64,000 bases of DNA from Mesotaenium endlicherianum. Its lineage: Eukaryota. Under the pieces are notes generated by a model. The model had not been told where the DNA came from. It saw nothing but the letters and a program-made list of their open reading frames with translations, and ran no database searches. Both the position numbers and the translations under genes were made by a program. Positions 20,901 to 49,385 of this stretch are shown here, in pieces (within the stretch, counting starts at the first letter, position 1; every line of letters begins with the position of its first letter). Where the stretch lies: contig WELA01002258.1 of assembly GCA_009602735.1 (NCBI GenBank), forward strand, positions 78,746-142,745, in the 5' to 3' direction.

Positions 20901-22396
20901 GTACCTCCCCCCCGGGGCCTGACATGGGGGTGCATACCGCATACCATTGCGACGTCTTAGCTGACTTGGAGCATGCAGTCACGCCCTAGGAGCCCACACA
21001 CTGCTCTCCTCGCCCTGGGAGATCACGTCACGAAGCAGCTGGAGAGCAGTCGCAACTCCGATTGCAGCTGCTGGACCGCTCCAGCAGCTCCAAGCGCCAG
21101 AAAGCAGACAGAGGGTGGGAGGGAGAGGTAGGGAGAGGCTTGCTGTTTGCGCATGCCACGCCATGCCCACGCCTGGTGCCTCCTGGAAGCGGGTGCAGGT
21201 GCCAACACCATGGACGTGGGGCGCTCCGTGCTGGAGCAGACGGAGCCGCGCTCGCGCCTGGACGCCGGCACCTGGGGCACCATGGGCGTGGGCATGGGCT
21301 ACGCCATTGCGGCAGCTGTCACGCAGCCAGAGCGCCTGGTGGTGGCCGTAGAAGGAGACTCCGCGTTTGGCTTCAGCGGGCTGGAGGTGGAGGTGAGCAT
21401 GCGCGTGCTACACAACCACATATACACAGGCAGGCCCCCTTGTGCGCGTGCACGCTCGTGCACCTGTGGCCCAAATGGTGGTCAATTCTGGTCCGCACTT
21501 CGTGTGTTGCGTTCCCGCCCACCCGCCCATGCCAGCGCATACCCCCCCCCCNNNNNCCTCCCCCCCCTCCCCTCCCCGGGCGCCCCCTTCGTGTGGGCAG
21601 GGGCTGCTTGTTTGCCCCTTGCAGGTCAACGCGTAAGAATAGACGCCGCTTTGTTTTTCTGTAAGGCATGTAGGCAGAGGGCCGGTTTGATCAGACGGGC
21701 AGCTTGCTTTTCTTTGCTTCAGGCTGGAGAGCCGCAGCTTTCTGCTGCCTAGTTGCTGCGAGCTCGTGAATGGCGTTGAAGAGCAGTGAGGATGCGTGGC
21801 CTCTTTTCTTGGCTCTGTAGCTGTGGGAGAGCTAAGCTGGAATGAACGCACTCGACGTCTGTGTCGCAGCTGGTCTGCTCCCCTCTTCATTAAAGAAGCC
21901 AAGATAGCATGCACATTGATAATGTACTTCCAAATACGTTATTGGTGCCCATGCCTCTGTCTTGGACTGCTGGAAGTGTGCAGCGTCACATTCGCCTCTG
22001 GCACAGTGGGCCTGAAAGAAAAGCAACATCCTTTTTGTTGGTGGGAACTCATACAACCCTTCAACATCTGCGTGCTTGCAGACGCTGGTCCGCTACAAGC
22101 TGCCCGTGGTCGTCATCGTGATGAACAATGGAGGAGTTTACGGAGGTGACAGGAGGGGAGCAATTGACCTGCCAGAGGCGGTCCGAAATGACCCCCCACC
22201 TACTTCCTTTGTGCCCAAGGCTCGATATGATCTCCTCATTGAAGCCTTTGGCGGGAAAGGGTACTTCGTGCACACGCCCGAGGAGCTTGCTGAGGCTCTC
22301 CATGAGGCTTTCTCTGCTAAGAAGCCGGCAGTCATTAACGTGACCATCGACCCCATGGCTGGTGTGGAGAGTGGCCGGATGACGCATAGGAACTGA
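17931..22396 (+). CDS. HACL1: Oxalyl-CoA decarboxylase / 2-hydroxyacyl-CoA lyase (ThDP-dependent); no in-frame ATG between the 17930 acceptor and the conserved N-terminal VDG motif
   Basis: Exons 17931-18329, 18628-19171, 19924-20101, 20438-20579, 21199-21392, 22082-22396 (TGA), all phase-compatible. Motifs: [79 protein letters not shown], ThDP motif GDSAFGFSG...NNGG. C-terminus ESGRMTHRN resembles plant HACL/OXC. Confidence 0.92.
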
Positions 22397-23754
22397 CAGC
22401 TCTCTGTGTGCACCCTCCTTCCTCCTCTGTCTAAGTTAGGCCAACCATCGGAATGATGATATGGTTCATGACACTTGAATAGCAATTCTGGATGTGATTT
22501 TGTATTCCTTCTAATAATAGCATGACAGTGCGATTGCTTATATGGGACATATAAGTTGTAGGCATTTGCAGATTTGGTTTGCGATGTCATTGGGGGATGC
22601 ATATCCAACATGTAAGTGCTGTGTCTCATGAGGACTAGCTAGTCTTATTTGAAAGGCGTTTTGAAAAGATGGTATGCTGTGCTTGTCACTTGTCCCAGAG
22701 CCCAAGAGTTACAATGCTGCAAGTCAACAATCTGGTAGAAAAGAAAGTAATGATGTACTCATCTTCTGTCACGATCTGCTAATACTTGGATCAAAGTCTC
22801 ATTTCAACAAATCTATAAATTAGTTGCACACAAGAATGCCTCTTGGCGTAACAAAGGCCACCTGTCCGAGTTGATGACATGAATGTTCTTCTATCACGGT
22901 CATGAAGGATGACTCTGAAGACAGTACGTCGGACTACAGCATAGAGAGTAACACCAATCAGTTATCGACTAGATGTGAAGAAAAAAAGCTAAGAAAAGTT
23001 GTTGTGGTCCTTTGGCAATATGGACAAAAAACAATGAGAATAAGGTGCAGCTTATTCAACCAACATTTTGCGTCAATGAGGGAGACCGTGTAGTTGCAAA
23101 TGAAGAGAAAGCGGCTTGTGGAAATCCACATGTGCGATTATTGCATACTATGATGAGGGGTCACAATGTTCAACTCCTACGTCCGAGCCTCATATCTAAA
23201 TTTTTAAACGCCACGTTCGCTGCTTGCACGTACAGTGCATCTCCACATCCGCGTACATCTCAAAGTGCCTCCATGGCAAGTATTCCTTGTCTAGTGCGTT
23301 CATATTCCTCTCATCGGCGTATTCGTTGGTAAACATCCAAAATAAAGCATATCGGGCACATGCAAATACTCGTGTTATTTTTGCCAGACCTTGACTTTTT
23401 GCCGCAAATTCGTGGGGCACTCTTTTGCAACGTGGTTATATTGCTTGTTCTCCTTCGGGAGATACTCCAATGTGGGCCAAAGTGTTTTGCGTTATATCAA
23501 CCAAGCCTTCAGTATTTTTGGTATTTGAAACTACTCTAATATTGTGCATGATTTCCCCCAATCTTGATCTCTCCCCCCAGAAATTAGTGAAAATTCAATA
23601 AGGATCGTTGCTCAAACCAACTCTTCTTGCTTCACTATGGGGCAAACTAATGGGAGGGGTTGCAAACCCTGATCTCACAAAGCGGCACCAAACAATAACA
23701 ACAAATGAAGCATCAGAATAATTCGATCCGTCAAAGTACAAATATCTTGATTCT

Positions 23755-24584
23755 TGTCATGATTTATTGCGTCGAGGTTGTCATATAAAAACCAAGCTCC
23801 ACATGTGCGGAACATCAACCTAGGAAGGCCGACTTTGCATTGACTTTACGCATCCGTATGTTGACCTTTTCTAGATTTCCGAGTCACCAACGTGTAGCGC
23901 GTCAAAGCATCTTCCAAATGACACCAATTTCGCGTCATTTGGTCAAGTATCGAGCGAGATAGGTGCGATCTAGTCCGCGTCACCTACCGGTCCCTAGCGG
24001 AACTTTCCCAAGGCCTAATTTGTGACTCAATGTCCCCAAAGGTGACATTGTTGGCTCTTCGTGACCCCAAGCTTTGTGCGCACATATCCGCGAGCCCCTT
24101 AGCCTACATAAGCTTTGCATTTCCATAGTATATGTGCATCATTGAGGCTATAACTGCATCACCTACTCCTAGAGGAAGCTTCCTCAATTTTCAGATCCAC
24201 TTTTGAGGCGCTATCTAGGTAGAATCACCCAAGGTAAGCTCGGCCAATGAGGGACACGTAGCATATCCTACGCACCTTGCTTTGATTGGTTAGAGTTATG
24301 CTTAGCCTATAGGAGTGCTAGTACATGCATTAGTGGACATAGGAGAGCCTCCTAGAGTGACTACATGCATCGGATCCGCCGCATACCCCGCCGGATTTCC
24401 AGGAGTATAAGTACTAGAGATGTCCCTAGAAGAGACATCTTTTAGAAGTCCATTATGCCAGGTGTAAGTAACAGAGATTATCAATAAAGCTTACACTTTT
24501 ATCTCTTGTGTTTTCAGGACCACTTAGTTACTCTCTTGTGAAGAGCAAGCCCTCCACGCTTCCAGTCACTTGAAGAACTTCACA
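23755..24584 (+). repeat. 5' LTR of element A
   Basis: TG...CA ends, TATAAGTA at 24406, AATAAA at 24483, followed by AG-TGGTGAG (PBS-like). The first 382 bp recur at 35916-36296 with about 9 differences. The 3' end is inferred from the PBS only. Confidence 0.75.
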
Positions 24585-24586
24585 AG

Positions 24587-24600
24587 TGGTGAGCAAAGTC
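24587..24600 (+). promoter_or_regulatory. Putative primer-binding site of element A (TGGTGAGCAAAGTC)
   Basis: TGG 2 nt after the LTR-terminal CA. The same TGGTGAG start occurs in element B. Confidence 0.55.
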
Positions 24601-24786
24601 ACAGCTTAAGCCCTTACCATAGGACTACTCTGAAGATCATGATGTGCTTCCAGTGATGTTTTGGGCCATACTTCATTGGTTGTTTTCCTACCAGATTACA
24701 GTCTTGAGGTGCTCACTCTGGAGAGTACACATCCCTTACTTCTAAAAGATGTCTCTTTGCCTGCAAGCAATTAGAACCTTCAGCGT

Positions 24787-27777
24787 ATGCCTACCCGTAG
24801 TGGGCTTTCTTATCAGCCATACTACGAAGGGGTTAGTGGAGAAGACTCGGACTCAGATCTCAGCACTATCACTGAACCCGCCGAAGAAGAGCAACCTGCT
24901 CTCCAGCACACAGCAGTTGCTTATGAGCCATCTCCCCAGTGGGCTCACTACGATTTCTGGTATCCCATGGCAGGTGACCACGAGGTCAGGACTGACAGGT
25001 CTGCCTACCGCTTCAGCGATAGGCCAGGCACCTGTGATCGGGAAGATACCATCTCGGAGTTTCAAGCTGACTTCGCGGCTGCAAAGCTCAAGACATCCAC
25101 GGTGACTAAGCGCGACGTCTTCGACACGCTTATGCGCTACCTCTCGCACGAGGCCCGCGACACCTTCCGTGAGAAGGAGGCCAAGCTCCGGACCCGCACT
25201 GAGCTTGTGGGTGACCCACCAGTGGCGACCCTGCTAGCTGATCCAGTGCAAGCCTTCTGGAACATCCTGAAGACAGAGTTCCAGGCTGCAACTGAAGAGA
25301 AGGTGTACGAGCTGCACCATTTCTTCCGACGCAAGAACGAGACTATCCGCATGATGTACCGCCGCTTGGTGCACCTCCGCCGCGATGTCGGCACTGTCAC
25401 TGACCGAGAGGCCGCGGAGATCTTCTTGCGCGCCGTCGAGCCGCGTCTGAGGGAGAGGGCCGTAGTCCCCCTCATCGACCGCCACGGTTCAGAGTATTCT
25501 CTGGAGCAGGCCTACCTCTCCGTTGAGAAGCAGAGCTTGGCCGCCGCACGGAGCAACATTAGCGATCGTGTGGGCTTAGCATCCACGGGCGTGCGCCAGG
25601 AGGCCTCAGTGCTGCCGTCTTCTACGACGCGCACGACGCCTGCCCGCCAGCCCCAGTCGCAGCAGCAGCAGCCTCAGCGCTCTCAGCTGCCCCAGCAGAC
25701 GCAGCAGCGCGGAGCTACGCGTGGCCGCATTTCCATGGCTGCCACTACGAGCGATCCCTGCTGGTCCTGCAGGAAGACGGGCCACTCACGCCAGCACTGC
25801 ACTCTCGCGCAGAATGGCAAGCCCGGCGACTGCACCTATTGTGGCAAGGCCGGCCACCTGCAGATCGTCTGTCTGCAGAAGAAGCGCGACGTCGAGAACG
25901 GACGCGCTCGCAACGGCCCTACGCCTTCAGCAGGACAGCGAGGCGCACGCAACCCTCGTACGGGTGGCCGCCCCGCGATGACAGCAGCTACGGCCACGAC
26001 GGACGCCGCATTGATGCCTGGAGCCAACGACTGCAGCTTCGACGACGTCAGCGACGCCCTCGTGGAGGCCAACGCGGAGATCGCTAGACTCCGTGGCCTC
26101 GTCGACGTCGATGACTATGACGCGTGCGGAGCACTCCTCGCGTTCGCTCCACCGTCCTACGCCACAGAACTGACAGCTGGCTCACGCACAGCTTCAGCGT
26201 ACACATCAGGCTCAGCGGCAGCGCCGCAGCCCCGCGCACGTCCGCGTTACGACGTAGCGCCCGCTGCCAGAGCTGCAGGCGCTCGCACAGGCAGCTCTGC
26301 TAGCCTTGTGCGCACCGCTCTGACAGCTGTCAGCAGCGACAGCCGGAGTCCCGACAGACTGCCGGATGGAAGGCTGCACGACTGCGCGGTTGCGCCATCT
26401 CCCGGCGCAAGCTCGCGCGCACGCGGGCCAGCCCGCGCGCCAGCCAAGGCCCCGACAGAGCCCCTGGCTTGCGCTTCCCTGCTGGCACCAGCAGGCCTCC
26501 CGTCGGCCCGCGTAGCGACAGCTGGCAGGCAGGGACGGGGGCACCTGGCGGCGTGCACGGCTACAACTGGGCCGGCCGCAGCCTCCCTCTTCGTTCGTGC
26601 GGCACTCCCGTGCGCAGCTCTGCGCACAGGCAGGGACAGCCGGTCCCCGCTGGCTGCTGCAGACAGCAGGCTCCAGCAGAACCCGCCACATGGCACGTGC
26701 ACGGCAGGCGAGGCCGCCTCTGCCGACAGCAGCATGCACGCACGCACGCTGGCTCACACGCGCGCCCAGCGCACTGCGCTGCCAGGTCCACGGCACACCC
26801 GGCGACGCCACGCCGTCGTCACAGCGGCAGCTGCAGCTGCGCAAAGCAGCTGCACCCACGCGCTGCCAAGTGGCGCGTGCGCGCAGGTCTGCACGGCCAG
26901 CGCAGCGACGGCCGCAGCGGCCGCCACCCTCGGTCAGCAAGGGGGGGTCCTGACTGCGCTGTGCGGCCGGATCGCCGGCAAAAGCGCCGACAGCGCACCC
27001 GCAGCTGCGCACATCCAGGGCTCAGCCCCTGCCGCACACGTGCTGCCACTTGGCACGCGCGCATGGCCCGGCTCAGCCCGTACAGATCCAGCGGTCGGAG
27101 CAGCCACCCGCAGTCAGGGGGGGGCTATACCCACTGCGCCACGCGGCCGGATGTTCGATCGCGGTGCCGACGGCCCGCGCACGGTTGCGCACAGCCAGGG
27201 CCTAAACCCTGGCTGCGCACAAAACCCCGGCAGCAGCCCAACGCAGGCTGCCGGGGGGCCGGTTAGCCCACGCATCGGGGGGAGGGCGCTGCGATCTTCG
27301 CCCGGGGCAGCCGAGATAGACGGCGCCACCGGTCCAGTGACCCTGCCCCTCGGCCCCAGCAGCCACCAGGGGGCGCCACCTGGCAGCCTCCTGGCAGCCC
27401 CGACCGCGCCAGCAGCTGCAGCAACTGCTGCAGCCGCGGCCGCACACGCGCCGGGGTCCGCAACTTTTGCGGCCGAACCCGCGACCGGCTGCACGGCAGG
27501 CCTTGCGGCAGGCTGCGCAAGGAGTCCTGCGGCAGACAGTGCGGCAGTTTGCGCGGCAGGCTGCGCAGCAGGCCTCGCGGCGCGCCCTGCGGCAGACAGT
27601 GCGGCAATCTGCGCGGCAGGCTGCGCGGCAGGCGCGACGGCAGTTCCCGCCACCGGCTGCGCGGCAGGCACGGCGGCAGATCTTGCAACGGGGGGGCTAT
27701 CCCGACTACGCCACGCGGCCGGATGTCCGATCGCGGTGTCGACGGCCCACGCACTGCTGCGCATTGCCAGGGCCTAA
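24787..27777 (+). CDS. gag: Gag of element A (capsid-like region, two zinc knuckles) plus an Ala-rich spacer; frame broken by an internal duplication
   Basis: MPTRSG start; knuckles CWSCRKTGHSRQHC and CTYCGKAGHLQIVC at ~25759-25872. Confidence 0.8.
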   Translation: MPTRSGLSYQPYYEGVSGEDSDSDLSTITEPAEEEQPALQHTAVAYEPSPQWAHYDFWYPMAGDHEVRTDRSAYRFSDRPGTCDREDTISEFQADFAAAKLKTSTVTKRDVFDTLMRYLSHEARDTFREKEAKLRTRTELVGDPPVATLLADPVQAFWNILKTEFQAATEEKVYELHHFFRRKNETIRMMYRRLVHLRRDVGTVTDREAAEIFLRAVEPRLRERAVVPLIDRHGSEYSLEQAYLSVEKQSLAAARSNISDRVGLASTGVRQEASVLPSSTTRTTPARQPQSQQQQPQRSQLPQQTQQRGATRGRISMAATTSDPCWSCRKTGHSRQHCTLAQNGKPGDCTYCGKAGHLQIVCLQKKRDVENGRARNGPTPSAGQRGARNPRTGGRPAMTAATATTDAALMPGANDCSFDDVSDALVEANAEIARLRGLVDVDDYDACGALLAFAPPSYATELTAGSRTASAYTSGSAAAPQPRARPRYDVAPAARAAGARTGSSASLVRTALTAVSSDSRSPDRLPDGRLHDCAVAPSPGASSRARGPARAPAKAPTEPLACASLLAPAGLPSARVATAGRQGRGHLAACTATTGPAAASLFVRAALPCAALRTGRDSRSPLAAADSRLQQNPPHGTCTAGEAASADSSMHARTLAHTRAQRTALPGPRHTRRRHAVVTAAAAAAQSSCTHALPSGACAQVCTASAATAAAAATLGQQGGVLTALCGRIAGKSADSAPAAAHIQGSAPAAHVLPLGTRAWPGSARTDPAVGAATRSQGGAIPTAPRGRMFDRGADGPRTVAHSQGLNPGCAQNPGSSPTQAAGGPVSPRIGGRALRSSPGAAEIDGATGPVTLPLGPSSHQGAPPGSLLAAPTAPAAAATAAAAAAHAPGSATFAAEPATGCTAGLAAGCARSPAADSAAVCAAGCAAGLAARPAADSAAICAAGCAAGATAVPATGCAAGTAADLATGGLSRLRHAAGCPIAVSTAHALLRIARA

Positions 27778-28261
27778 ACCCTGGCTGCGCACAAAACCCC
27801 GGCAGCAGCCCAACGCAGGCTGCCGGGGGGCCGGTTAGCCCACGCATCGGGGGGAGGGCGCTGCGATCTTTGCCCGGGGCAGCCGAGATAGACGGCGCCA
27901 CCGGTCCAGTGACCCTGCCCCTCGGCCCCAGCAGCCACCAGGGGGCGCCACCTGGCAGCCTCCTGGCAGCCCCGACCGCGCCAGCAGCTGCAGCAACTGC
28001 TGCAGCCGCGGCCGCACACGCGCCGGGGTCCGCAACTTTTGCGGCCGAACCCGCGACCGGCTGCACGGCAGGCCTTGCGGCAGGCTGCGCAAGGAGTCCT
28101 GCGGCAGACAGTGCGGCAGTTTGCGCGGCAGGCTGCGCAGCAGGCCTCGCGGCGCGCCCTGCGGCAGACAGTGCGGCAATCTGCGCGGCAGGCTGCGCGG
28201 CAGGCGCGACGGCAGTTCCCGCCACCGGCTGCGCGGCAGGCGCGGCGGCAGATCTCGCAAC
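27118..28261 (+). repeat. 572-bp near-perfect tandem duplication containing GCGGCAGGC minisatellite units
   Basis: GGGCCTAAACCCTGG at 27198 and 27770 (offset 572). The same peptide appears in two different frames. Confidence 0.9.
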
Positions 28262-28863
28262 GGGCCCCGCGGCAGGCCTCGCGGCAAGCTGCGCGCACGG
28301 CGCTGCAACAGGCCCCGCGGCAGAATGCGCGGCAGGTTTGCCGGCTGCGCCAGCAGCGGCCATTCTGGCCTGCTGCGCACGCGCGCAGCCACTCGGCAAC
28401 CGCTCCGCAGTCGGGCGCGCGAGCCGCGAGCACACGCTCGCAGCACCGGTCAGTCGGCCCGTTGTTCCGCAGAAGCGCGTCGGGCCAGACCAGGGACGAC
28501 GGACGGAGGAGGCACCGCGGTTGCCTTGTTCCTTCCGCATCCTAGAGCCCTCCACGACCTCAGCAAAGCCGACGCCACATGCGCTCACTTCGCCTATGAC
28601 GACGGTGCAGCTCAGCGCCGAGGTCATCTCTCTAGCACTGCACCGCATGCCGGCGGTCTCCTTCGCAGAGCTCGGCGTCTCCATGGAGGCAACGAGGCAA
28701 GCCGCTCAGCTAATGCTCCAGTCGCGCAGAGCCACGCTGCGCACCGCCGCCAGGAGGCCGATGGCCGATGCCGCCACCGCGGTGCGATCCACGCCCGCGC
28801 GCCGTGCGCATGAGCGCAGGATGATCAGCACTCCTAACGCCGCGTTTTTGGATAATTCGCAAG

Positions 28864-29230
28864 GGATTGTGCTCGTCAACACCCAGGCGATGCAGCGCAT
28901 CATGTTCGACACAGGCGCGCAGCCAGTTCTCATCAGCTTCCGCTACTTCCGTCAGCTAGGACTCTCTTCCGCTGACTTGGAGGACTCTCCGACGCGCATT
29001 AACACCGCCGCCGGCACGTCCGAGACCGTCGCCAGTCGCACGAGGTTGGCGCTACTGTTCACTCTGCACCCAGGCACGGCAGACGAGACAACCATCCATC
29101 GGCACGCACTCGTCACTCCTTCCGAGTCCTTCGATGTGCTCCTAGGGCAGGACGTGCTCTTTCCCATTGGCGCCGCGGTCGACAACTGGGCAGAGCGCGT
29201 CTTCTATCGTCCCGACTGGAGGACAGGGGA
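28864..29230 (+). pseudogene. Aspartic protease domain of element A
   Basis: IMFDTGAQPVLIS (DTG at 28908) and FDVLLGQDVL. Confidence 0.85.
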
Positions 29231-31266
29231 ACGCGCACCGCATCCTTGCCCCTTGACATTGCCGATCGCCGCCCAGCAGTGTCCAGCTTCATGGGGCTGG
29301 ACGATGGCCGGCCAGTGGTCAAGACCAATAAGGACGGGCCCGAGGACGAGGAGATCTCTGTGGGGGTGGACCTGCTTGAGCCACAGGACGAGGAGCCGGA
29401 CCTACCTAGTGCCGAGCTCCACCTCACGCCGCAGCAGCAGGCGGATGTCCTGGCAGCCCAGGCCAGGGAGCAGATCCGCATCTGCACTGCCCCACAGCGC
29501 GATGATGCGGCAGATGGCGGACGATGCCACTGAGGCCCTCGCCACGGCTAGCACAGCCATCGCTGCCGCCGCCCTTGCTCGCGGTGCGGTCGCAGCGCCT
29601 ACAACTCATCAGGGGGTCTCGCCCTCTCGCCGCAAGCCGTCTGCGAGGACCGACGTCCGCGTTCGCCACGACGTGCCTGTTGGCGTGGCCATTCAGTACA
29701 GTATGGACTCTCAGCCGCCCCCTCACGACGCCTCGCATCAGACCGGAAAAACCTGGCCTCGCACCACGGCATCCGAAGACGAGGCCATGCGGCAGGCAGC
29801 TTATCCTGGCAGATCCGACGACCAGTCCCTCAAGAGTGAGGAGGAGACGCAGTGGGAGCGACTGCCAGAGGCATCCGTTGAGGTACTCAGCGCGGCGCCT
29901 CCAGAGGAGCCCCCGCCAGCTGCGCCTACGGCACGCAGGCAGCGCGCACCTACTAGTCCGCCCGGCTACAGCGCACCCAGCCAGCCCATGACACACGACT
30001 GGCCCAGCAGGGCTCGCACCGACACCGCTGGACCCAGCCGTCCAGTGTCACACGACTGCTCAACGAGCCACGAGTGTCGCCGCATCGCACATTTGTTTAC
30101 GACAAGCCGGGCTGCCGTGGCCTCCTCTAGCGCTGGCACACACTCCATACAGCAGCCAGCGCCCAGGCTCAGCGTCCGCGAGCCACCCCGCACAACCCCG
30201 TCTATCTGCGCCCATCTGACCTACGCACATCGCACTTGGCCGACCATTGGACCCGCTCGAGAGACCACTCCTCTCCGCGAGACGAGCCGCTCCCGATCGC
30301 TCACACCCCTTTGCGAGACGCGAGAGGTGACTCCCCTCCGTGAGATGCGAGCCCGCTTCGTCACGCCACCCTACGACGACAAGGAGCGCACACTTCCTTA
30401 CGACGACACGCGGGCCCGCGGGGACACGTCGCCATACGACGACACTCGAGACCAACGCCGCACTCCGCCCTTCCGACCCCTCTCAGCTGGCGACAACGCT
30501 CAGTCTTCTTCCGAGGCGCATTTCGTGATGCTGGCCCCTACAGCTCCGCGCGCCAGCGTCCCTCGCAGCCACATCGCTGGCAACGGTCCCTCCGGGTCAC
30601 CTCCTCCCAAGGTGGCCCGCACCGACAGCAGGCCGCCCAGTCGTCACCCATTTACGGCCGCCGCACGCACACGGCTCATGTCTAGTCTCCGGCAGCCCCG
30701 AGACGCGCCCGTCCCACGAGGGCAGCCCCGGCCGCGAGTCCAGCTGGCCCCTCGCCGGCTAGTTCGGTCCCCGCAGGAGGTCAAAAGCTTCGAGTGCTCC
30801 GTCTGCACAATCCCCTCTGCAGACATGCGCGCACGCCAGCGGGCCTACTTCGACCCGCACCCCTACTTAACTCAGCGTTCCGTTATCGACCAGCTGGCCC
30901 ACGTGGCCTCGCACCAGACTGACCACGCCCAGCGCGACAGGTGGCAGCAGCTGTGCGTGGCCTCGGCCCGACGTCAGGCCCGCGCTGTCTCCCCGACAGC
31001 CCTGCAGGATGCGCGCCTGCGGTGGCGCACCTACCAGGACCACGTACGGGAGGAGCGTCCGCAGCCGCTCACTGACCGCATCCCCAGCCTTACGCGTGAC
31101 TACGCAGACCGTGCTGTGGCCGCCCTCCGCATGGCGCCACATCAGCACAGCGCCGAGCGTACCTTCCCGCCGCCCGCTCAGCCCGGCACCCCCGCAATGG
31201 GGTGTCGCCCACTTCCGACTCCTATCTGCGTAGACTCTCTAAGACGGTCTGGACGAGCGGCCCGGC

Positions 31267-32216
31267 GGCATCGTCCTCGTCAAGCTCTTCGCCGGCATCG
31301 CCACCGGGTTGCTCGCGACCTTACAGGCCGGCATCCCGGTGCGCCGCTACGTGTACGTCGATCCCGATCCTGAGGCCCAGCAGGTGGCCCGTCGGCAGAT
31401 GGCGTTGAGCCACGAGCGGTTCCCTGACCTCCTTCCCGCGCACGCATTCCGCCGCGCTCAGACGGACTGGCCCATGGACATCCGCGACATCACCGTCGAG
31501 CATGTCACCCGACTTGGGCCCATTGACCTCGTCATCGCCGGTTGGGAGTGCCAGGGCTTCTCCAGAGCCGGGCGTGGCAGGGCGCTCAGCGATCCCCCAC
31601 GGCCCTCTTCTGGCACTTGCTCCGCGTCCTCAACATTGGTGAGGATCGCCAGCCGCCACACACCCTCGCGTGGGTCCTGGAGAACGTGGCCGCGCGCCAC
31701 GATCGCCGTCCCGATGTTAGCGCCGACTTCGCTCTTTGCAGCAGCTACGTCGGCCGCGAGGCCGTCATTGACGCTGCCCAGATTGGTTCCTTCGCGCACC
31801 GCGTCCGCGCCTACTTCACGAACCTGGCGATGCCAGGTACTCTCGAGGCGTTGGCCGCCTCTCATCCACGTCACCCACGCACCGTCGACTCCATCCTCGA
31901 TGCCCCTCGCCTGGCCCAGCGCGTGACTGCACTACCACATCCCTCCATGGCGCAGTGTGAGGTCCTGCATGACGTCACTCGCGCGCTGCCGACTTTTGTC
32001 AGCCGCTACGACAGCGACGCCTTCGTCGGAGATCAGCGCGGGATGGTCATCGACCTGGAGACTGGCATGTTTGACAGGCCGCGCCCTGCGGAGATGGAGC
32101 GTGCCATGGGCTTCCCGCCGCATCTCACACAGGTGGACGGTCTCACTGAGGTGAAACGCATTCGCCTCTTGGGGCAGGCGATCGACGCCAACGTCCTCAC
32201 GTGGATTCTCCTGCAG
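31267..32216 (+). pseudogene. DNMT3-like C5 cytosine methyltransferase domain of element A (1-nt frameshift at ~31597)
   Basis: Motif I LVKLFAGIATGLL, motif IV GPIDLVIAGWECQGFS, motif VI WVLENV, motif VIII AHRVRAYFTNL, motif IX EMERAMGFP, motif X RIRLLGQAI. These parallel DNMT3 LSLFDGIATGLL / GPFDLVIGGSPC / ENV / AHRARYFWGNL / EMERVFGFP / RQRLLGRSW. Confidence 0.88.
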
Positions 32217-32664
32217 ACGCAGGCCTTGGCGCCTCTCTACGCCGCAGCCCGCCATTCCGAGCTGCCTTGGCCTGCCCACGATATGGACGATGACTCCATC
32301 GACGATGACAATCAGGCCCCGCCCGGCACGACGTGGCATCCTCAGCGCGCAGGGCCTGCACCGCCAGCGCGCACCCGCCCCCCCTCCCCCCCGCCGCACA
32401 GGGAGGACTCTGGTTCGCTGGGGGGGGGCCGGCGGAGAGAGGAGTCCTCACAGCGACCCAGGCCGTCCCGGTCACCTTTTCTTTTTCCTCGCTCGCAGGC
32501 AGACGGTGCCAGGCAGCTGGCCGCAGATGCCACAGTGCAGGTACCCGCGGCAGGCCGAGCGCCAATTGCTGCAGGGCAGGTGACACTTGCAGCACTACCG
32601 TCTACCCCAGCGGCAAGACAAAAGACTCCAGCTGCAAGCCAGGCGACGCCACCAGCCCCACCGA

Positions 32665-35600
32665 CATGGAAGCTGGGGGGGACACTCACCAAGGCACAGG
32701 CTGCACAGTTGACGGCACTGCTGGACGGGAGGCGCAGCACCAGCTTTGCCAGCGGCATGCACGATCTTGGGCGCTATAGGGGGGACCCCATGCGGATTAC
32801 TCTCACGTCGCAGGAGCCCATTTTCCTGAAGCGTTATCGCTATAGCCAGTTCGAGGATGGCTTGATTAGCGCGCAGACAGGCAAGCTGGAGGACAGTCGG
32901 CTCATTCGGGAGTCCTCCTCTTGCTATGCCGCACCCACGGTCATGCCAGCCAAGAAGGATGCCTCGGGCAACTTTTCCGAGAAGAGGATGTGCGGTGACT
33001 ATCGTAGGCTGAACGAGGTCACCGAGCAGGACAGATATCCTATGCCGACGCTTGGCGAGATCTTTGACGACATTGGCACGTGCACTTGGTTCTCAGTGCT
33101 GGATCTACGTCAGGGCTTCAACCAGATTCCTATCGCCGAGGAAGGACCAGCATAAGACGGCGTTCTGGGGAGCACAGCGCCTCTACGAGTGGGTGGTGAT
33201 GCCGTTTGGGTTGAAGAACGCGCCAGCTACCTTTCAGAGGGTGATGGATAAGGAGCTGGCCGGGCTGTCCTTTGCCCGATGCTACATCAATGACGTGCTC
33301 GTCTTCAGTCAGACGTTTGAGGAGCACGTGGCGCACATCACTGCTGTCCTGGACCGCTTGGAGGCCGCTGGGCTCAAGTGCCATCCAGGCAAGTGCACTT
33401 TTGGGACCCGCGAGGTGGAGTACCTTGGCCACCTGCTCTCTTCCAGCGGCTTGGCACCCCAGCTGGCGAAGATCTCGGCCATCACAGGCATCCCACCTCC
33501 TACAAATCTCTTGCAGCTGCGGGCCTTCCTCGGCATCGCCAACTACTACCGCCGCTTCGTGCCAGGGTTCAGCGAGCTAGCCAAGCCGCTCAAGGACTTG
33601 CTCCGCAAGGGCGTTGCCTACGTGTGGGGACCAGAGCAGCAGGCGGCATTTGATACGCTCAAGGAGCTGCTGGTGAGCACTCCTATGCTTTGGCGTCCTG
33701 ACTACACGAAGCCCTTCATCCTCCACACCGACTGGTCGCAGGCAGGGCTGGGCGCTGTGCTGGTGCAGGAGCATGACGGCTTCGAGCATGTGGTGGCCTA
33801 CGCCAGCCGCAGCAACAACCGCGCGGAAGGCAACTACGGCTCCTACGAGGGGGAGTGCCTGGCAGCGGTCTGGGCGATCGTGCACTTCAGGCACTATCTC
33901 TACGGCACGCACTTTCGCCTGGTCACCAACCATCAGCCACTTAAGTGGCTCATGACGTCGGAGCGCTTGAGCGGCAAGTACGCACGGTGGGCGCTTATCT
34001 TGCAGGAGTACACCTTCGACGTGCACCACCGTCCAGGCTCGACCAACCTGGACGCTGACGGTCTCAGCCGTAACCCGCTGCCCTCCTTGAGGGATCTCAC
34101 TGTGGCCCGCCACGATGAGGATGAGCCGGTGGCCTGGCACGCGGCGGCCTTCCTGGCCTTCACCGTGGACGGCGATGTGCGGCCCGCAGGGCTCACTAGC
34201 CTGGACATGGTGACCGTCATCACTCGGCAATTTGCCCTGGCAGCGGCAGAGGATCAAGACAGCTGGCAGCGCGGTCCCGAGGACGTGTGGGACGACGCCC
34301 CAGTGCTGCAGTACGTCACGGCCAAGGAGTTGGCACCCGATGTCAGCGCACGCGAGCGCGACCGCATCCTCAGGCGCAGCCGCGACTTCATTTTCATGGA
34401 CCGGCGCGTGCGGCGCGTGATGGCGGACGGCTCCGTCCTGGTGGTCCCTGAGCCTGCCATACGCAGTCAGCTGGTGCGCCGAGTGCACGAGTCCCTCGAA
34501 CACTTTGGTGTCAAGCGCACCCTTAGTCTTCTTCAGGCCGAGTACTGGTGGCACGGCATGACTAAGGTCGTCGCCGCTGTCGTCAGCAGCTGCACTCTCT
34601 GCGACCGTGTGCGCTCGAGCTTCACAGCGCGCACCGTTGCCCTCAGCCCCCTTCCTATTCAGGGGCTGATTTACAGGTGGTCACTTGACTTGGCTGGAGA
34701 GCTGCCCAAGTCTCGCCAGGGCAACCTCTACGTCTTGGTGATGATTGAGCACATGTCCAAGTGGATCGAGCTCGTGCCCTTGCCCAGCAAGGCCAGTGAG
34801 GGGATCGCTCAGGCCTTCCTCAATCAAGTCCTCAGCCGTTTTGGCGGCTGCGCTGAGGTGCTGACCGACCAGGGCAAGGAGTTCCAGGGCAGCTTTCAGA
34901 AGCTGCTGGAGCGCTCTATGATCGACCACCGCACCACCTTTTGCGTTCATCCTCAGGCTGACGGCCTCGCCGAGCGCATGGTGCAGACCGTCAAGCTAGG
35001 GTTGCGGAAGTACTGCCTTGCCCACGACCGTACCCACTGGGACGACGCCCTCCCTTGGCTAGCGATGGGGTACAAGATCAGTAAGCAGGCCTCCCTGGCC
35101 TCGCACTCGCCCTACTTCCTTCCCTACGGCCGACAGCCCATCCTGCCAGCAGCAGCCAGGATTGTGGCCGAGAACGTCTTGGACTTGGACAGTCCCGAGA
35201 CATGGAGTGCTCTTGTCGGGCAGCGTGCTCAGCTCTTTCGGCGCCTGATGCCCATGGCCATGGATAACCTCAGCATCGCACAGCATCGCGACACACTGAG
35301 GTACGCCATGACTTGTGGAGGAGCCTATCATCCGCGGGTGTTGCAGTTTTCCGCAGGTGACTTCGTGTACCTGCGACGTCAGACGAAGAACACCCTCGAC
35401 ACCAGCAGCTCGCCGGTCATCCTACGCGTCAAGCGTGCCTTGGCGTTAGGAGTCTTGGAGCTGGAAGGCGCAGATGGCCGTCTTCACAAGGACCACACAA
35501 AGAACTGTGGGCCGTGCCACCTTCCTAACCTTGACTTGCAGGTCCGTCCCCGCGACGCGCGGCCGCCCAAGGACTGGGCGTGCCAGATTTGTCACAGCAC

Positions 35601-35757
35601 TGGCCAGGTCACCAAGATGCTGCTCTGCGACAGCTGCAACCTCGGCTTCCACATCGGCTGCCTCGACCCGCCGCTGGCCCGCGTGCCAGCTGAAGACTGG
35701 TTCTGCAGAGATTGCACTGAGCTAGCCTTAGGCAGCGTACACAGCTCATCAGCTTGA
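32665..35757 (+). pseudogene. pol: RT-RNaseH-integrase-PHD part of the element A polyprotein (frameshift at ~33144; catalytic YIDD changed to YIND)
   Basis: RMCGDYRRLN, YPMP, PFGLKNAP, YIND, HTDWS, TNHQPL, HHCC (HESLEH...CTLC), DDE (LDLAG, TDQG, AERMV). C4HC3 PHD finger CQIC...LLCDSC...HIGC...WFCRDC at 35581-35715. Confidence 0.92.
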
Positions 35758-35915
35758 GGCTGAGAGCTGGGGGGGGAATTAAAACATTTTCGACTTGACT
35801 CTTTTTTTGGCTATAACGCCACATGTATTATAGACTCCATTGCAGCACAGCCTGCTTGCCTATGATGTGTTGCTTATGCCTATGATGCGCACTCGACCTC
35901 GTAACGCACGACAGT

Positions 35916-36296
35916 TGTCATGATTTATTGCGTCGAGGTTGTCATATAAAAATCAAGCTCCACATGTGCGAAACATCAACCTAGGAAGGCCGACTTTGCA
36001 TTGACTTTACGCATCCGTATGTTGACCTTTTCTAGATTTCCAAGTCACCAACGTGTAGCGCGTCAAAGCATCTTCCAAATGACACCAATTTCGCGTCATT
36101 TGGTCAAGTATCGAGCGAGATAGGTGCGATCTAGTCCGCGTCACCTACCGGGCCCTAGCGAACTTTCCCAAGGCCCAATTTGTGACTCAATGTCCCCAAA
36201 GGTGACATTGTTGGCTCTTCGTGACCCCAAGCTTTGTGCGCACAAATCCGCGAGCCCCTTAGCCTACATGGGCTTTGCATTTCCATAGTATATGTG
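35916..36296 (+). repeat. Truncated 3' LTR of element A
   Basis: Matches 23755-24136; similarity stops abruptly at TATGTG (36296). Confidence 0.9.
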
Positions 36297-37249
36297 TGCA
36301 GCGTGCTTGCTGCCTTAGCCACTTCCTTTTCCTTGTGCTGTCGAGCGTCTGCTTCCAGCAACTGCTCCATGATCTGCCTTGTAATGGATTCAGCTGTCTG
36401 ACTAGCTAAGCCCTGCTGTTGCCCCTAGCCTGCGGCTCTGGGCTCATCAAGGCAGGTGTTATAGATAATTTCTTGTCCAACTCCTCCGGGCGTTCTTGAA
36501 TATCACTTCAAGGCATATGGTCTTTGCGGCCCTCCAGAATCTCCTGAATTTTGGCTACTCTCTTCAGCCCATTCACCAATATTGCATTAGCGTTCTCGCC
36601 CTAATACTTGGTTTAGATTATATCCAATTTCTTCAGGCGTTGGCTCTGGGGTCTTATTCTCAGACTCTTCTGACATGTCTTGTAACGGCGCTTGCTCTGG
36701 TGAAGACAATGGACACTTTTGGTTAGCTTCCCAACTACTTGAGCTTTCCTGCCAGTAGTCTCCGTGCCCAGCTGCTCTTGGGCTGAGGTGGGTATCATAC
36801 TTTGATATGGCATCTTCTGGAGTCTCCTCACGTCTTGATGTTGTGGCTCCGGAAGGTGGGCTCCCAAACATCCGACTGTGAGTGGCGTTTCTCACAGATG
36901 ATGGGGTGTCCTGCGTATCGTCTTCTACTCTTGGCAGCGGCGTTGCTTGCTCAGGTGCCTGGTCCCCCTTTGGTGTATCCTCTCTTTCCAGAGGTGCTTG
37001 TAATTCATTGGTCCCGGTATCGATCTGGTCCAACAGATCCTGGCATCTCATCAATTCAGCCACCCTAGCTTCCCTGAATGCTCTGTCTCTGGCAGCTTTC
37101 GCTGCGTCTTTTTGCACACCGGATTCTTTTTGTTGCTGATGTGCCGTCTTGATAGCCCTTTGATTAGATGTTGGCACCACATGGGCCCCAATTGTCACTG
37201 GTCTTGGCCTCAACATAGGCTTGTCAGTGAAGGTCAACTGCTGCCACGT

Positions 37250-38215
37250 CATGATTGTTTCCACCAACCAAGTCATAGAGTGCTGCCCAATCATGTTGCC
37301 GAAAATCTTTGCAGCTTCATCTGACCCTACAGCACCGGCTACATGCCAAGCTATGGTGTCGGGTATTCCAAGGCATTTGCCCTTCTCCACCGCTGTAGGC
37401 TCTCTCCAAACGGCGTCTCTTTTATGCATGTCTTTGACCATTCCTTGCCCACCTTCTATGAAGGCTCGGGATCTTGGATATGTTGTGAAGGTGGGCAGTA
37501 CCACCCTTGGCTGACCTAGTTCGTTGATGACACACTTTGGATAGGAATCCCTCCTGGCCACTGGTTTGGTATGCACCGCCAGCGCCTCTACCACTGTCAA
37601 TGCCGTTGGTTATCGCCGTGTAATGTCCTCCATCTCTCTCAGGATCTCAATAGACATGCCGTTGGTCCAAAATACTCTGGCCCTATGGGATAATCCTCCG
37701 TGCTTGGCGTCGTTGATTAGCACATGATGGCCCAAAGTGACGTCGAAAATCAGCCATGGTTCTCCTGGCTTCATCTGCTTGTAATCCATTCCCGGATGCA
37801 CATTCTCAATCACAAACACTGGTGGGTAGAAGTGCCGTCGTTCCCGCAGCATGCTGATGATTGTCACCATCCATCCCCAGTGTTGTGCTCGTGGATCACT
37901 GAATCCCCTCCTGTTTCCACCTTGAGAAAACGGTTGACAAGGAAATCCAACAAAGGTCCAATCAATTTTTTAGTCATACAGGCCTTCAGGCTTCACATCA
38001 ATAAAGTTGCCTCCGGGGATGCGCTTGACATTGCTATATGCGAGCACCAACCCTTTAAAATGATGCATTTGCCGCATCTGACTCATGACTTCTCTGAATG
38101 CTAGAAAAGCGTGGTTGTCATTGTCCACATACAGGACTTTGGCCACCTGTATTCCTCGCTGGATCAATGCTATAGTCCCAGACCCAAGTCCGGCAAATAA
38201 TTCCAACACCACTAC
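37250..38215 (-). pseudogene. C5 cytosine methyltransferase domain of element B (two in-frame TAA stops at 37970-37972 and 37610-37612)
   Basis: One continuous frame: VVVLELFAGLGSG...LYVD, *KIDWTFVGFPCQPFSQGG..GFSDPR, VIENV, HRARVFWTN, WREPTAVEKGKCLGIP, FGNMI. Confidence 0.85.
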
Positions 38216-38519
38216 TTCCCTTTTGCGAAAAGGATCTTCCATCCTGACAATGCCTTGCGGCAACGGCTCAACTCCAGGCATCAGATTTGCAGTGGAGGTA
38301 ACTGGGTGGGGTACTAACAGCAACTCTTGCGGGCCGCGGTCCCTATTACTCACAGTTTCCAGCTGCTTCATGATCCGGGGTTGCCATACCAAGGGTGTTG
38401 GCATGTTGATGCTCGTATAACTTTCCTCTTTTTGCTTCATGATGTTGTTGCAGGCTTTTGGGTACCTGTCGTTAACGCAGCAGTCTAGCAGTCCATAGTT
38501 TGGTTCTCTTGTGCAAACC

Positions 38520-40957
38520 ATCTTCACAGGTATTTCTCCTGCCGACTGTCGATCTGTTGACTGGTAAGTCACCCTCCGCTTCCGCAGATCAATGACCATA
38601 CCCAAGGAGATCAGCGCTTTTGTTCGCAAGAGAACATCATAGTTCTCTGCATCCGTCACTGTGCACTCCATGAGAAGTGACGCCTCTTCAAGTTTCCCTG
38701 GCTTTACTGTGATTTTCACAGGCTTGCGGGTAATCCCGCAAGACTTTGAGACTTGTCTTGAGGCAATTCTGAACTGGAAAGGACTCTCTTTCAGGTCCCT
38801 TGCCGTCAATCCTAGAGCTTTCACAGCTCGCTTTCCCAAGATGACTGGCTGTGCGCCTGTATCCAACAGAATGTTGGGAGCTACCCAATTGTTGAAGATT
38901 AATGCACCATCCCAATTTTGCACTCTCACGGTGCTGAAATTGATGGGCAATGAGGCGCTATTTGCACCTTCTCCAGCTATATCCAGCTGATGTCCGGCTT
39001 CTTCAACCGTGCACGGGTAAGTGATATGCAAATCAGCGAGAGAAAGCAAAGAAGCATGCTGGATCTGGTGTTCCACCACGGCCTTCAGCTTCTCCAGCAA
39101 AAAACTAAATGTCTTACGCGTCCCGGGCCTGGCTTGTCGTAGCTGCGAGATCTCATTTTCATCCAGAGTGATCCGAAAAGTCTGAGGAAGCTTCCCAGCG
39201 TTCCTTGGCACCAGACGGTTGTGATCTGCTTGCTCGGCAACCGTTGCGTCCACAGCCTTTTCAAGCATCAGCTTCTCGCCTTTGCAGACGCTCTTTTCTG
39301 CAATATCTGCATCATAGTAGACATTGGGCGCATTTAGTTTCGCAAACTGAGCTTTTAACTCAGAGATTTTTACACTCATAGCTTCATACTTCTGGTTACC
39401 CTTGCCACCCTTTTCTTTCCTTTTTTCCTTGTTTGCCTCTTTCAAGGCAGCATTTGCCCATGGCGATTTTTGGGTTCTTAGACCAGCACTCATCTTGTGA
39501 GTGTCCCTTCTTGCTGCAATGTGCACATATCTACGCCTTGCTAGCAGATAGTTGCTTAGCATCTGGTTACGAACAATCCCTCTTCTGATGTCCTGATTTC
39601 CTGCAATTCCAACAGTGTTGGCATGCTTAGCAAACTTATTGAAAGACCCGCTCTTTTTCTTAAACTGAAAATTAGAGCTGTTGGCCTTAGACGGAGAGGA
39701 TTCCTACCTCCTCTCAGGAGCCATAAGCGTCCTGGAAGCCACTTTGTACGACACTCTACCTTCTTCAACATTGCGTGCTATTTCAGCCGCCTCGTCGCTG
39801 TCCCAGTCAATCCCGTGCTTTGCGGACAGATGTGGCCTGACTTCACGATCTGTTTCCTTGCCCAAGCACAACAGAAACTTGTCAGCCACTATTTTGGGCT
39901 CGTATTTTTTGCCTTTTTGGCGAGGTCTACCAATCGGGATTTAACCTCCATGACTGTCTCGTTCTTCTGACGGACAAAATGCACATAACGGTGCACCTTA
40001 AGATTGCGATCTTTTGGGAATCGTGCTTCACGCAACTTAAAGAAACGACGCAGACAATGCTCGGGGTCTAGCTAGTCATCCCCAGCCTCCATATCCTTAC
40101 AACAGCTAGCCAAGCCTTGCGCATGGCTTGCCTCTGTCGTGGCGCTATCACCTTGCTGACCCTGAAGAGGTGCAGCTCTGCGTGTTACTCAGCAATCTTT
40201 TCAGACAATTTTGCACACACCTTTCGCAATTCTGCGACAGAGCCGGCATCATCGTTCTGAGTAGCAACCCTTTGCTGACCCTCAGTGAGTTGCCTCATGG
40301 CCTCTGTTAATTCTTGTGTTAGTGCAGCTAAGTCTATGCTCTCAACAGGTGCAATTGGACTGCTCTTCCTGAAGATAAAGCAGACATTTGGGCTTTCGCA
40401 GCCTCTTCCTGGATTTTCAAATCCCTAGCCCTTTTTTGTTCTCCAATTGCCCATTCCTGGGTGAGATCCTCATTCTTCCGGAATTGGCGATATAACAGCA
40501 AGGCATCCTTGTCCAAGTACTGAACCAAGCCTATAAATGCGACAGGTTGCGTATAAGAAGAATCCTTCCGAATCTTCTCAAAGAATTCTGCCCAATAGAT
40601 CTCATCAAACTCTTCGAAAGTGAGACCGTTTCCACTGGTTCGTCCGCTAAAACACTTTGCAGACAGCTTGAACTTAGGATTTTCATCCCGATCATCACCC
40701 GCCATTTCGAACGGTGACGAGGACTCACTAACTCTACTCCACACGTCTTGCTCTCTGCCCAAATCAGGTGCAAAAGCTCGTGTGTTATCCGGGTTCTCAC
40801 CGCTTGCGGGGATATGACGAGACTCGTCGCTCGACGGTTGCTCACTCCACCGCTTGTCAGTATGCTCAGACGTCTCACCTCCTGGTGGACTTTGGCTAGA
40901 ATCAAAACCTTCTGCAGACTCCACAGAGGGGCAGAGTCTTCCACTCCTGAACCGCAT
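38520..40957 (-). pseudogene. Degenerate gag and aspartic protease of element B
   Basis: MRFRSG start at 40957. VQYLDKDAL and HFVRQKNETV align with element A MRYLSHEAR and HFFRRKNETI. Protease ILLDTGAQPVILG at 38863. Several stops and frameshifts. Confidence 0.75.
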
Positions 40958-41286
40958 ATACAGTTGGATTTCTCCGGGTCCCCTTCCAGGTTGAACACCG
41001 GCAGCCTTCACAGGCCTCAATCTCCAATTGACTCAAGAATTCTTGTTTACTTGAACCAATCAATGAGTTCTCAAAAGTAAGGCAGCGTCTTACTTCCACA
41101 CAGGCTTTCACCCAAGTTCAGGATTTACAGAATGAAAAAATATTGTGGTTTGCAGAAATCACATCTAAGCAGCTTAATTGGCAATGCCGCATTCAAAGAA
41201 AATTGCCCTTCAAGGCTTTCGCTTAACTTCCACAAGTCACAGCTTACAAAACTCTGAAATGGCACATCTATGCTGGCCTGGTCTGA

Positions 41287-42030
41287 TGAATTGAATCGAC
41301 TTACCAAATAGGCGATTAACAATTAATAAAGATCCTTATATCAGCAAGTAATCTTATGGTATTTCCGTTAACTAGTTAAACGGCAAAGGACAATACACTA
41401 GCAGGGAATAATACTCGTAAGTCAAATACGAGTAAACTAGCATCAATGATGCAAATCAGTAAACTCATACATAAGCAAGGTTAGAAGACAGTGCGTATCA
41501 ATGGCTTCTCGCCTTGGATTCAGAGTTCTCTCAGTAAGCTGTACAAGAGAGTTGGCCTCGTTTCCGAATGCCGAACTCGAGAGCAATGCCTAGCGTATGT
41601 ACATGGAATGAGTTTACTGTTCAACGGTCAGTGCGATGGCACCGCCTACCCGGGAGTTAACCACGTTGGTAGGACCTCGGTTAACCAAATCCACCGCCAT
41701 CTCCCATCATCCCGAATAGCCATCCATCATAGGGATGTCATCTGGCCATTCATCTAGCATATCGCACTTAGATGCATATCAAGGCAGTTCGCTGCTACCG
41801 AGTACGGAAGTCAGCTGGCTGTCAAAGAATGTGTCAGCAAGCTGACTTAAGTTGACTTCAGCCTGCTGCTTTTGGCCGAGTCATTAAACTGATAATTATG
41901 TAAAGTCCAGCAGACTGATTATTAACTAAAGTTCAGCAGGCTGAATACTAACTAAAGTTCAGCAGGCTGAACTAAATTAACTATTATATTTAAATGAATA
42001 TTATATCTACTAATATACTGATTCATTACA
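41287..42030 (-). repeat. 3' LTR of element C (744 bp, with an extra ~25-bp tandem unit at ~41924-41973)
   Basis: High-identity copy of 49386-50105. Confidence 0.95.
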
Positions 42031-42143
42031 ATCCCTCCAACTTAACTTGTTGTCGCCTCGACAACATTAAACTGCAAAAGCTTTAAATAAAGAAACTGAC
42101 CCTGACCAGCCTCCCTTACTGACTATCTTTTCAGCCTGTCACC

Positions 42144-49351: not shown

Positions 49352-49372
49352 ACAAAGAAGACTGTGATAACT

Positions 49373-49384
49373 GCTCCGATACCA
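49373..49384 (-). promoter_or_regulatory. Primer-binding site complementary to the initiator tRNA-Met 3' end
   Basis: TGGTATCGGAGC, one mismatch to the canonical TGGTATCAGAGC, 1 nt after the LTR end. Confidence 0.9.
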
Positions 49385-49385
49385 C

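Follow-up and report, generated by a model that had tools for sequence, protein, structure and literature searches.

DNA methyltransferases (DNMTs) carried by retrotransposons were described in 2018, when SymbioDIRS-Dnmt3 and SymbioLINE-Dnmt were reported from Symbiodinium and KnitGypsy-Dnmt3 from Klebsormidium nitens (PMC5890265). The Gypsy-DNMT3 report was repeated in a 2025 paper (PMC12344493), and a 2026 preprint lists 'streptophytes (Gypsy-DNMT3)' among the known transposon DNMTs (10.64898/2026.05.21.726589). Here we analyze a 64,000-nt stretch of the Mesotaenium endlicherianum contig WELA01002258.1, called the window below, whose positions serve as coordinates throughout. Its plus-strand segment 23755-36300, element 1, is almost certainly a defunct copy, broken by frameshifts, of an autonomous Ty3/gypsy long terminal repeat (LTR) retrotransposon with a DNMT3-like methyltransferase in its Pol. 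A preliminary description of this DNA had pointed to published precedents in dinoflagellates and charophytes, and these exist in the form of the Symbiodinium and K. nitens elements (PMC5890265). The Gypsy-DNMT3 design has thus been in print since 2018, and element 1 adds another case. Our literature search found no publication joining Mesotaenium, DNMT3 and a retrotransposon; similarly, literature on Zygnematophyceae, DNMT3 and transposable elements reported no such elements, as far as titles and the beginnings of abstracts tell.

The closest described system is KnitGypsy-Dnmt3, which like element 1 has an intron-less, non-rearranged Dnmt3-type DNMT in the Pol open reading frame (ORF) of an LTR Gypsy element from a streptophyte alga (PMC5890265). 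The two differ in their host, which for element 1, judging by an exon of the neighbouring host gene, is a Mesotaenium-like zygnematophyte. They also differ in their ends: element 1 has plain direct LTRs, whereas the repeats of KnitGypsy-Dnmt3 are arranged as in DIRS elements according to the legend of Fig. 4 in the original report (PMC5890265). Furthermore, the copy number of element 1 looks high, while KnitGypsy-Dnmt3 has fewer copies in K. nitens (PMC5890265). The comparison covers the host, the type and place of the DNMT, the repeats and the copy number as published. SymbioDIRS-Dnmt3 and SymbioLINE-Dnmt share with element 1 a DNMT within the retrotransposon coding region, which in the DIRS element lies in the same Pol ORF as the reverse transcriptase (RT), but they belong to the DIRS (tyrosine recombinase) and LINE classes and to another eukaryotic supergroup (PMC5890265). 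The EpiLTRs of Euglena gracilis and Cymbomonas are another parallel: they are LTR elements of a Ty3/gypsy-like type in which a cytosine methyltransferase occurs together with a chromatin reader. Their DNMT is sister to DNMT4 and is accompanied by a Dam-like adenine methyltransferase and a chromodomain (10.64898/2026.05.21.726589), whereas element 1 has a DNMT3-like enzyme, no Dam and a PHD finger. Chromoviruses, one of which lies 5 kb away in the window, resemble element 1 in having a histone-tail reader fused behind the integrase; their reader is a chromodomain instead of a PHD finger, and the chromovirus of the window lacks a DNMT.

The DNMT domain of element 1 (31264-32234) is located between protease and RT, and a change of frame divides it into two halves. 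Its N half (31264-31596) holds motif I, FAGIATGLL (31288-31314), and motif IV, GPIDLVIAGWECQGFS (with GWECQGFS at 31540-31563). The C half follows in another frame (31578-32234) with motifs VI (VLENV), VIII (AHRVRAYFTNL), IX (EMERAMGFP) and X (RIRLLGQAID, the motif proper being RLLGQAID). A C5 cytosine methyltransferase domain at this place, with motifs I, IV, VI, VIII, IX and X in order, had been proposed in the preliminary description, and every string quoted there was found. The catalytic Cys, the Glu of the ENV motif, the HRxR motif, the FxGxxxG cofactor loop and the GQ/GN of motif X are kept in element 1 as well as in intact relatives. The domain contains no intron, and its motif order is not rearranged, unlike that of DRM.

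The earlier suggestion that the enzyme is DNMT3-like is borne out by comparison with solved structures, among which both halves match DNMT3A/B/C best. In phmmer searches the N half found DNMT3C first (E 3.5e-7), followed by DNMT3A (1.2e-6) and DNMT3B, and the C half found DNMT3A first (E 2.1e-5), with DRM far behind in both cases. Of the 30 Atlas feature matches of the C half, 27 are PF00145 clusters. A family hidden Markov model (HMM) built from the relatives L001, L007, L011 and P0006, with the window excluded, recognizes the two halves with 105 and 153 bits (independent E-values 1e-33 and 3e-48). When run on known enzymes, the family profile A4 scores 69-83 bits with DNMT3A/B/C (E 2e-22 to 5e-18), compared with 44-50 bits for DRM, 43-45 for DNMT2, 45 for M.HaeIII, 37 for M.HhaI and 20 for DNMT1. 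Structure prediction points in the same direction. For L001, an intact relative, an AlphaFold model (predicted local distance difference test 75.6, predicted template modelling score 0.80) retrieved DNMT3A, 3B or 3C entries throughout among the Foldseek matches listed, the best being 8te4_A with an E-value of 1.2e-17 and a target-normalized template modelling score of 0.79, at about 20-22% sequence identity to the cellular DNMT3A/B/C entries. Among solved structures, DNMT3 is the nearest neighbour of the element 1 enzyme by sequence, ahead of DRM, DNMT1, DNMT2 and bacterial enzymes. The label 'DNMT3-like' is based on this nearest-neighbour comparison and on a motif order that is not rearranged. 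In addition to the best sequence and fold match, cellular DNMT3A/B/C share the motif order and the FxGIATG loop with the element 1 domain; the latter differs in lacking PWWP and ADD domains, in having a Glu-Cys (E-C) instead of a Pro-Cys (P-C) dipeptide in motif IV, and in residing inside a retrotransposon polyprotein.

The surrounding features follow the Ty3/gypsy order of gag, protease, RT, RNase H and integrase, with two additions, the DNMT behind the protease and the PHD finger behind the integrase. A repeat search identified the LTRs as direct repeats at 23754-24136 and 35915-36296, and gapped pairwise alignment placed the 5' LTR at 23755-24138 and the 3' LTR at 35916-36300 (384-385 nt, TG..CA, 8 mismatches and 2 indels). 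The gag region (24787-26100, within an ORF at 24775-27777) encodes two CCHC zinc knuckles (25759-25800 and 25831-25872); it matches no Pfam family and is 26% identical to the gag region of the metagenome loci L012-L014. A low-complexity stretch at 27118-28383, leading from the gag frame into the protease frame, contains a 572-bp tandem duplication (27118-27417 versus 27690-27989) and 12-nt repeats. The aspartic protease follows at 28872-29159 (Pfam gag-asp_proteas, E 2e-7, 31.9 bits with a cut-off of 28.2). It is separated from the DNMT by a linker of about 2.1 kb (29160-31263) that is mostly rich in Pro, Arg, Ser and Thr, has no Pfam match and is of unsure frame; other copies show one-base indels in it at 29225, 29490 and 30964, and in relatives the same spacing is only about 300-400 nt. 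Downstream of the DNMT lie RT (32979-33432, Pfam RVT_1, with a frame break near 33142 that divides the match to the family RT-RNase H (RT-RH) HMM into pieces 32979-33143 and 33142-34032), RNase H (33625-34011, Pfam RT_RNaseH 124.9 bits and RT_RNaseH_2 115.8 bits) and an integrase with H2C2 zinc domain and catalytic core (34453-34938, Pfam Integrase_H2C2 57.2 bits, rve 49.6 bits). The PHD finger (35581-35715, Pfam PHD, E 6.2e-11, 42.6 bits) forms the C-terminus of Pol just before the 3' LTR. The leader of element 1 does not differ from shuffled sequences in its predicted RNA fold (z 0.41).

As the preliminary description had stated, this copy is frameshifted, and the breaks are in fact several: the frame changes between gag and protease (27267-27777) and near 31240, 31593 and 33142. 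To view the state of other copies, contigs of four runs in Logan (X1, X5, X9 and X13, of which X1 is probably the source DNA) were mapped on 22500-38500 at a likeness of at least 85%. Run X1 contributes 9655 contigs. Its summed depth, which is not a copy number, reaches 14,277-18,954 in the DNMT bins and 14,044-28,151 in the first RT bins, compared with 55.8 in the single-copy flank. We read these depths only as an indication of hundreds of copy-equivalents in X1, the DNMT included. Behind position 31593 other copies carry an extra base (3958 of 7763 depth in X1, 9.9 of 9.9 in X13), and at 33142 they have a base fewer (540 of 5266 in X1, 14.6 of 14.6 in X13). Since these one-base differences fall exactly at two of the breaks, other copies read through there. 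Contigs covering the leader further reveal 8 extra bases (ACTTGGTG) behind 24152 in other copies. X5 and X9, two runs of unspecified kind, have next to no cover over 28.4-34.2 kb, and X13 has low cover throughout.

The same contigs also contain a deletion derivative, found in X1, X5, X9 and X13, in which 24731-24738 is joined to 35794-35806 with 16-39 unrelated letters in between. It retains the LTR, the leader and approximately the last 100 nt before the 3' LTR, and it looks like an abundant non-autonomous relative of element 1. Summed depth peaks in the bin 24102-24635, which with 150,914 in X1 far exceeds all others. Within the leader of the element 1 family, contigs of X5, X9 and X13, and none of the DNA run X1, show a 284-nt GT..AG joint at 24231-24516. 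This may be an intron that is spliced out of the leader, either in the family or in its non-autonomous derivative.

The element 1 DNMT is no one-off capture. That possibility had been named beforehand as the observation that would overturn the proposal, and it is contradicted by the X1 contigs, by a second DNMT-carrying element in the window (element 2, described below), by 25 metagenome loci and by at least 150 protein clusters. A word-based protein search returned the three fragments P0001-P0003, in which the DNMT C half is followed by RT at 35-47% identity (5 matches among 7996 candidates), as well as P0006, a 1919-aa polyprotein with RT, RNase H, DNMT, integrase and PHD finger (1 match among 1184 candidates). 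A metagenome scan confirmed 25 loci out of 585 pattern matches. Judged by tblastn, 19 of them have the order protease-DNMT-RT, three have protease-DNMT with no RT in the locus, and the remaining three (L001, L008 and L011) have RT, RNase H, DNMT and integrase. A PHD finger is present in 12 of the 25, and many of the contigs stop short of that point. The whole DNMT lies in one open frame in three loci, with ORFs of 3609, 1369 and 2153 aa; the rest have stops or frameshifts. In a profile search of 1.84 billion representatives, 21,146 proteins were found at E<=0.001, 3418 at 1e-10 and 481 clusters at 1e-30. The best 150 of these 481 clusters all score at least 255 bits and are all family members. 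Among them RT-RH precedes the DNMT in 75, the DNMT precedes RT in 3, and the DNMT stands alone in the predicted protein in 72. Of 22 representatives picked by length for a Pfam scan, 21 have RT/RNase H and integrase and 19 have a PHD finger. Individual relatives carry further domains, such as a Tudor-like domain behind the PHD finger in P0139 and a G-patch between DNMT and integrase in P0173.

The two domain orders are mirrored in the phylogeny. In a small DNMT tree (28 of 32 rows, the four with fewer than 190 filled columns being dropped) the type with the order RT-RH-DNMT-integrase forms one clade, supported by 100 in the Shimodaira-Hasegawa-like approximate likelihood ratio test (SH-aLRT) and by 100/99 (ultrafast bootstrap/SH-aLRT) in a careful run. 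Element 1 occupies a long, poorly resolved branch in this tree. An RT-RH tree (23 of 27 rows), rooted on the chromovirus of the window, recovers the same subclades as the DNMT tree and separates the two architectures with support of 96/95 and 88/89. Similarly, one branch with a support of 94 splits the two architectures in a large DNMT tree of 172 rows from which 6 representatives were dropped; the best identity of element 1 to any of its rows is 42%. With a single outgroup and a tree without cellular DNMT3, these sequence-based topologies fit one old acquisition of the DNMT followed by one move within Pol. That the DNMT is under constraint is suggested mainly by the fact that it persists, motifs included, in very long open frames across deep divergence.

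The PHD finger of element 1 finds its best solved matches in the PHD fingers of KMT2D/KMT2C, CHD4, UHRF1, PHF12, KAT6A, PHF21A, ATXR5 and AIRE, most of which read the unmodified H3 tail. By analogy with the chromodomains of chromoviruses, it would tether integration to nucleosomes with unmodified H3 tails. Our best explanation of the whole, which we consider somewhat better than an even bet, is that element 1 is a dead Gypsy copy of a family whose intact members send their DNMT along with Pol. The enzyme would be translated within Gag-Pol and carried into the particle together with RT and integrase. Its likely substrate would be cytosines, either in the freshly synthesized cDNA or in the new insertion. 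As far as can be judged from sequence, intact copies probably encode an active cytosine methyltransferase. A more tentative part of the explanation concerns its target, which is possibly, though with slightly less than even confidence, the element's own DNA. Methylation of their own new DNA by DNMT-bearing Pols is the same inference that the authors drew in 2018, and the SymbioDIRS-Dnmt3 domains methylate CG de novo in yeast, the only ones showing this in that study (PMC5890265).

A number of observations weigh against this explanation. Element 1 itself cannot make the enzyme, and no target-site duplication was found around its LTRs, which are flanked by ATTCT and GCGTG. Its motif IV reads G-W-E-C-Q, where Glu replaces the Pro of a P-C dipeptide that is, to our knowledge, present in nearly all C5 methyltransferases, and we know of no assay of an E-C variant of motif IV. 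Detection by the general Pfam model is poor as well. The PF00145 check proposed in the preliminary description did not come out as hoped: the N half stays below the cut-off (19.7 versus 22 bits), the C half gives no match, and neither DNMT copy of the window, that of element 1 or that of element 2, reaches the cut-off. Although the relative P0006 scores 39.2 bits, no more than 5 of the 22 long relatives in the Pfam scan reach E<=1e-6 with PF00145; since the model detects the family so poorly, domain-count surveys based on it would undercount such elements. In terms of CpG observed/expected, element 1 is not depleted (0.93, and 1.10 in its DNMT), unlike its neighbours element 2 (0.59), the chromovirus (0.49) and the host gene (0.76). 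Long-term CG methylation is expected to erode CpG, and the undepleted element 1 therefore speaks against CG self-methylation; codon and amino-acid usage could mask such erosion. The selection estimates are not favourable either. Among close, decayed metagenome copies dN/dS is 0.50-0.97 for the DNMT, whereas RT-RH of the same pairs gives 0.27-0.57; more distant pairs are saturated. These values indicate weaker constraint on the DNMT than on RT, although this is not well shown. For the DNMT of KnitGypsy-Dnmt3, by comparison, Ka/Ks is below 0.2 (PMC5890265). Finally, KnitGypsy-Dnmt3 produced no detectable methylation in yeast, a result called inconclusive since human DNMT3B also failed (PMC5890265).

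The unusual motif IV is a family trait, as sequence comparison indicates, and not a lesion of element 1. E-C is likewise present in L001 and L011, two intact relatives with single ORFs of 3609 and 2153 aa. Among the best 150 of the 481 clusters, 76 have E before the catalytic Cys, 44 have P, 3 have S and one has C, with the pattern unmatched in 26. The E/P state has switched no fewer than three times on the DNMT tree, and the approximately unbiased test rejects the union of all E-bearers in one clade (p-AU 4e-6), a group that was named only after a first tree had been seen. The codons at this position, GAA/GAG and CCA/CCT, lie two base changes apart. Recurrent switching between E and P in long open frames suggests that both forms may work.

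These data have to be weighed against the idea that the DNMT-like domain is a non-catalytic module, a DNA- or nucleosome-binding or oligomerizing part of Pol that has lost methyl transfer. The Glu found in place of Pro in element 1 and in 76 of the 150 best relatives would be at home in such a module, as would the under-scoring by PF00145, the lack of detectable activity of KnitGypsy-Dnmt3 in yeast (PMC5890265), the undepleted CpG of element 1 and the dN/dS of 0.5-0.97 in close copies. Against it stands the retention of the catalytic Cys, the ENV Glu, HRxR, the FxGxxxG loop and the GQ/GN of motif X in element 1 and the intact relatives, and the persistence of P-C in 44 of the 150, with a state that flips on the tree, is better fitted by two working variants. 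We therefore regard the loss of catalysis as rather unlikely. Slightly less likely still is an active enzyme with another target, be it flanking host chromatin, RNA or an RNA:DNA intermediate, options that were raised by the 2018 authors (PMC5890265). The effect could then be mimicry of gene-body CG methylation or protection against host editing. A PHD finger that matches H3-tail readers suggests chromatin rather than naked cDNA, and the undepleted CpG of element 1 also fits a target outside the element. On the other hand, the place in Pol beside RT fits action on cDNA, and enzymes of the DNMT3 type that have these motifs act on DNA.

A third alternative is an artefact limited to this scaffold, in which misassembly or a one-off chimera would have put a fragment of a host DNMT3 gene into a Gypsy element. 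The N runs at approximately 11680-12150 and 21600 do mark the window as a draft scaffold with gaps, and the missing target-site duplication of element 1 would agree with a chimera. Yet the order protease-DNMT-RT recurs in 19 independent metagenome loci and protease-DNMT in 3 more, element 2 in the same window has protease and DNMT too, thousands of contigs cover the DNMT at an RT-like depth, and the domain has no intron. The contig cover of X1 and the recurrence in metagenome loci rule this candidate out, and we give it next to no weight. Compared with these alternatives, a DNMT that travels with Pol and acts on the new copy is the account we prefer.

Element 2 is an older, truncated DNMT-carrying element on the minus strand (36301-41032) that abuts element 1 at 36300, directly after its 3' LTR. 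It comprises a gag-like ORF (41032-40334), a protease (approximately 38896-38552) and a DNMT (38224-37235) in one frame with two TAA stops (37970-37972 and 37610-37612); at the first of these, other copies read a different base. Its motif IV is the canonical FPCQ. The DNMT is 30% and 23% identical to the two halves of element 1 and is the most divergent row in our trees. Across the window, family profiles detect no more than two DNMT domains and two RT domains; element 2 has no RT, the second one belonging to the chromovirus. The latter is complete, lies on the minus strand (41287-50105) and is inserted upstream of the element 2 gag. It has LTRs at 41287-42030 and 49386-50105 (22 mismatches and 28 gap columns of 746) and a 5-bp target duplication, TCTGA. 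It encodes a gag and a Pol whose domains are protease, RT, RNase H, integrase, SH3 and chromodomain. An additional Glu/Lys-rich ORF of 581 aa (43889-42144), for which Pfam gives no match, is located behind pol and ahead of the 3' LTR.

The remainder of the window is of a different nature. A host gene on the plus strand (13300-21700) has AMP-binding exons of the oxalate-CoA ligase-like type followed by exons of a thiamine-pyrophosphate enzyme that resembles oxalyl-CoA decarboxylase or 2-hydroxyacyl-CoA lyase. In zygnematophytes, liverworts, mosses and some chlorophytes it has relatives of about 970-1630 aa, fusion proteins in which both Pfam sets occur. One exon shows 95% identity (over 84% of the query) with a protein labelled jgi/Mesen1, 79% with an 'SM000001S...' protein, 77% with Closterium proteins and 73% with a protein of Klebsormidium nitens, which points to a Mesotaenium-like zygnematophyte as the host. 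The region 50106-64000 is AT-rich and contains units 8.4 kb apart (52146-55233 and 60578-63868) that are 83-94% alike; within it, 53665-54588 is open in all six frames and is therefore a simple repeat.

Zygnematophytes are the algal group closest to land plants, and cytosine methylation is the host's main means of transposon silencing. A transposon with its own de novo methyltransferase would reverse the usual arms race, an idea that has itself been in print since 2018. The window adds a second class of streptophyte algae to those with this design, here at high copy number, and shows two deeply diverged versions nested in one locus. Relatives in public data far exceed the picture given by the literature, with 481 clusters at E<=1e-30, and most of them are missed by Pfam-based surveys. 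Within the DNMT-carrying Gypsy family two domain orders exist, and E-C in place of the near-universal P-C is common, along with a PHD finger. Gypsy-DNMT3 might even represent a large, old and mostly unannotated Ty3/gypsy lineage that combines a DNMT3-like enzyme with a PHD reader, includes the E-C variant and the orders protease-DNMT-RT and RNase H-DNMT-integrase, and has two deep branches in one zygnematophyte, one of them amplified to hundreds of copy-equivalents, but this broader proposition we put forward with considerable doubt. The E-C trait raises a clear biochemical question, namely whether an E-C DNMT3 works, and the PHD finger offers a handle on how such elements may choose their chromatin.

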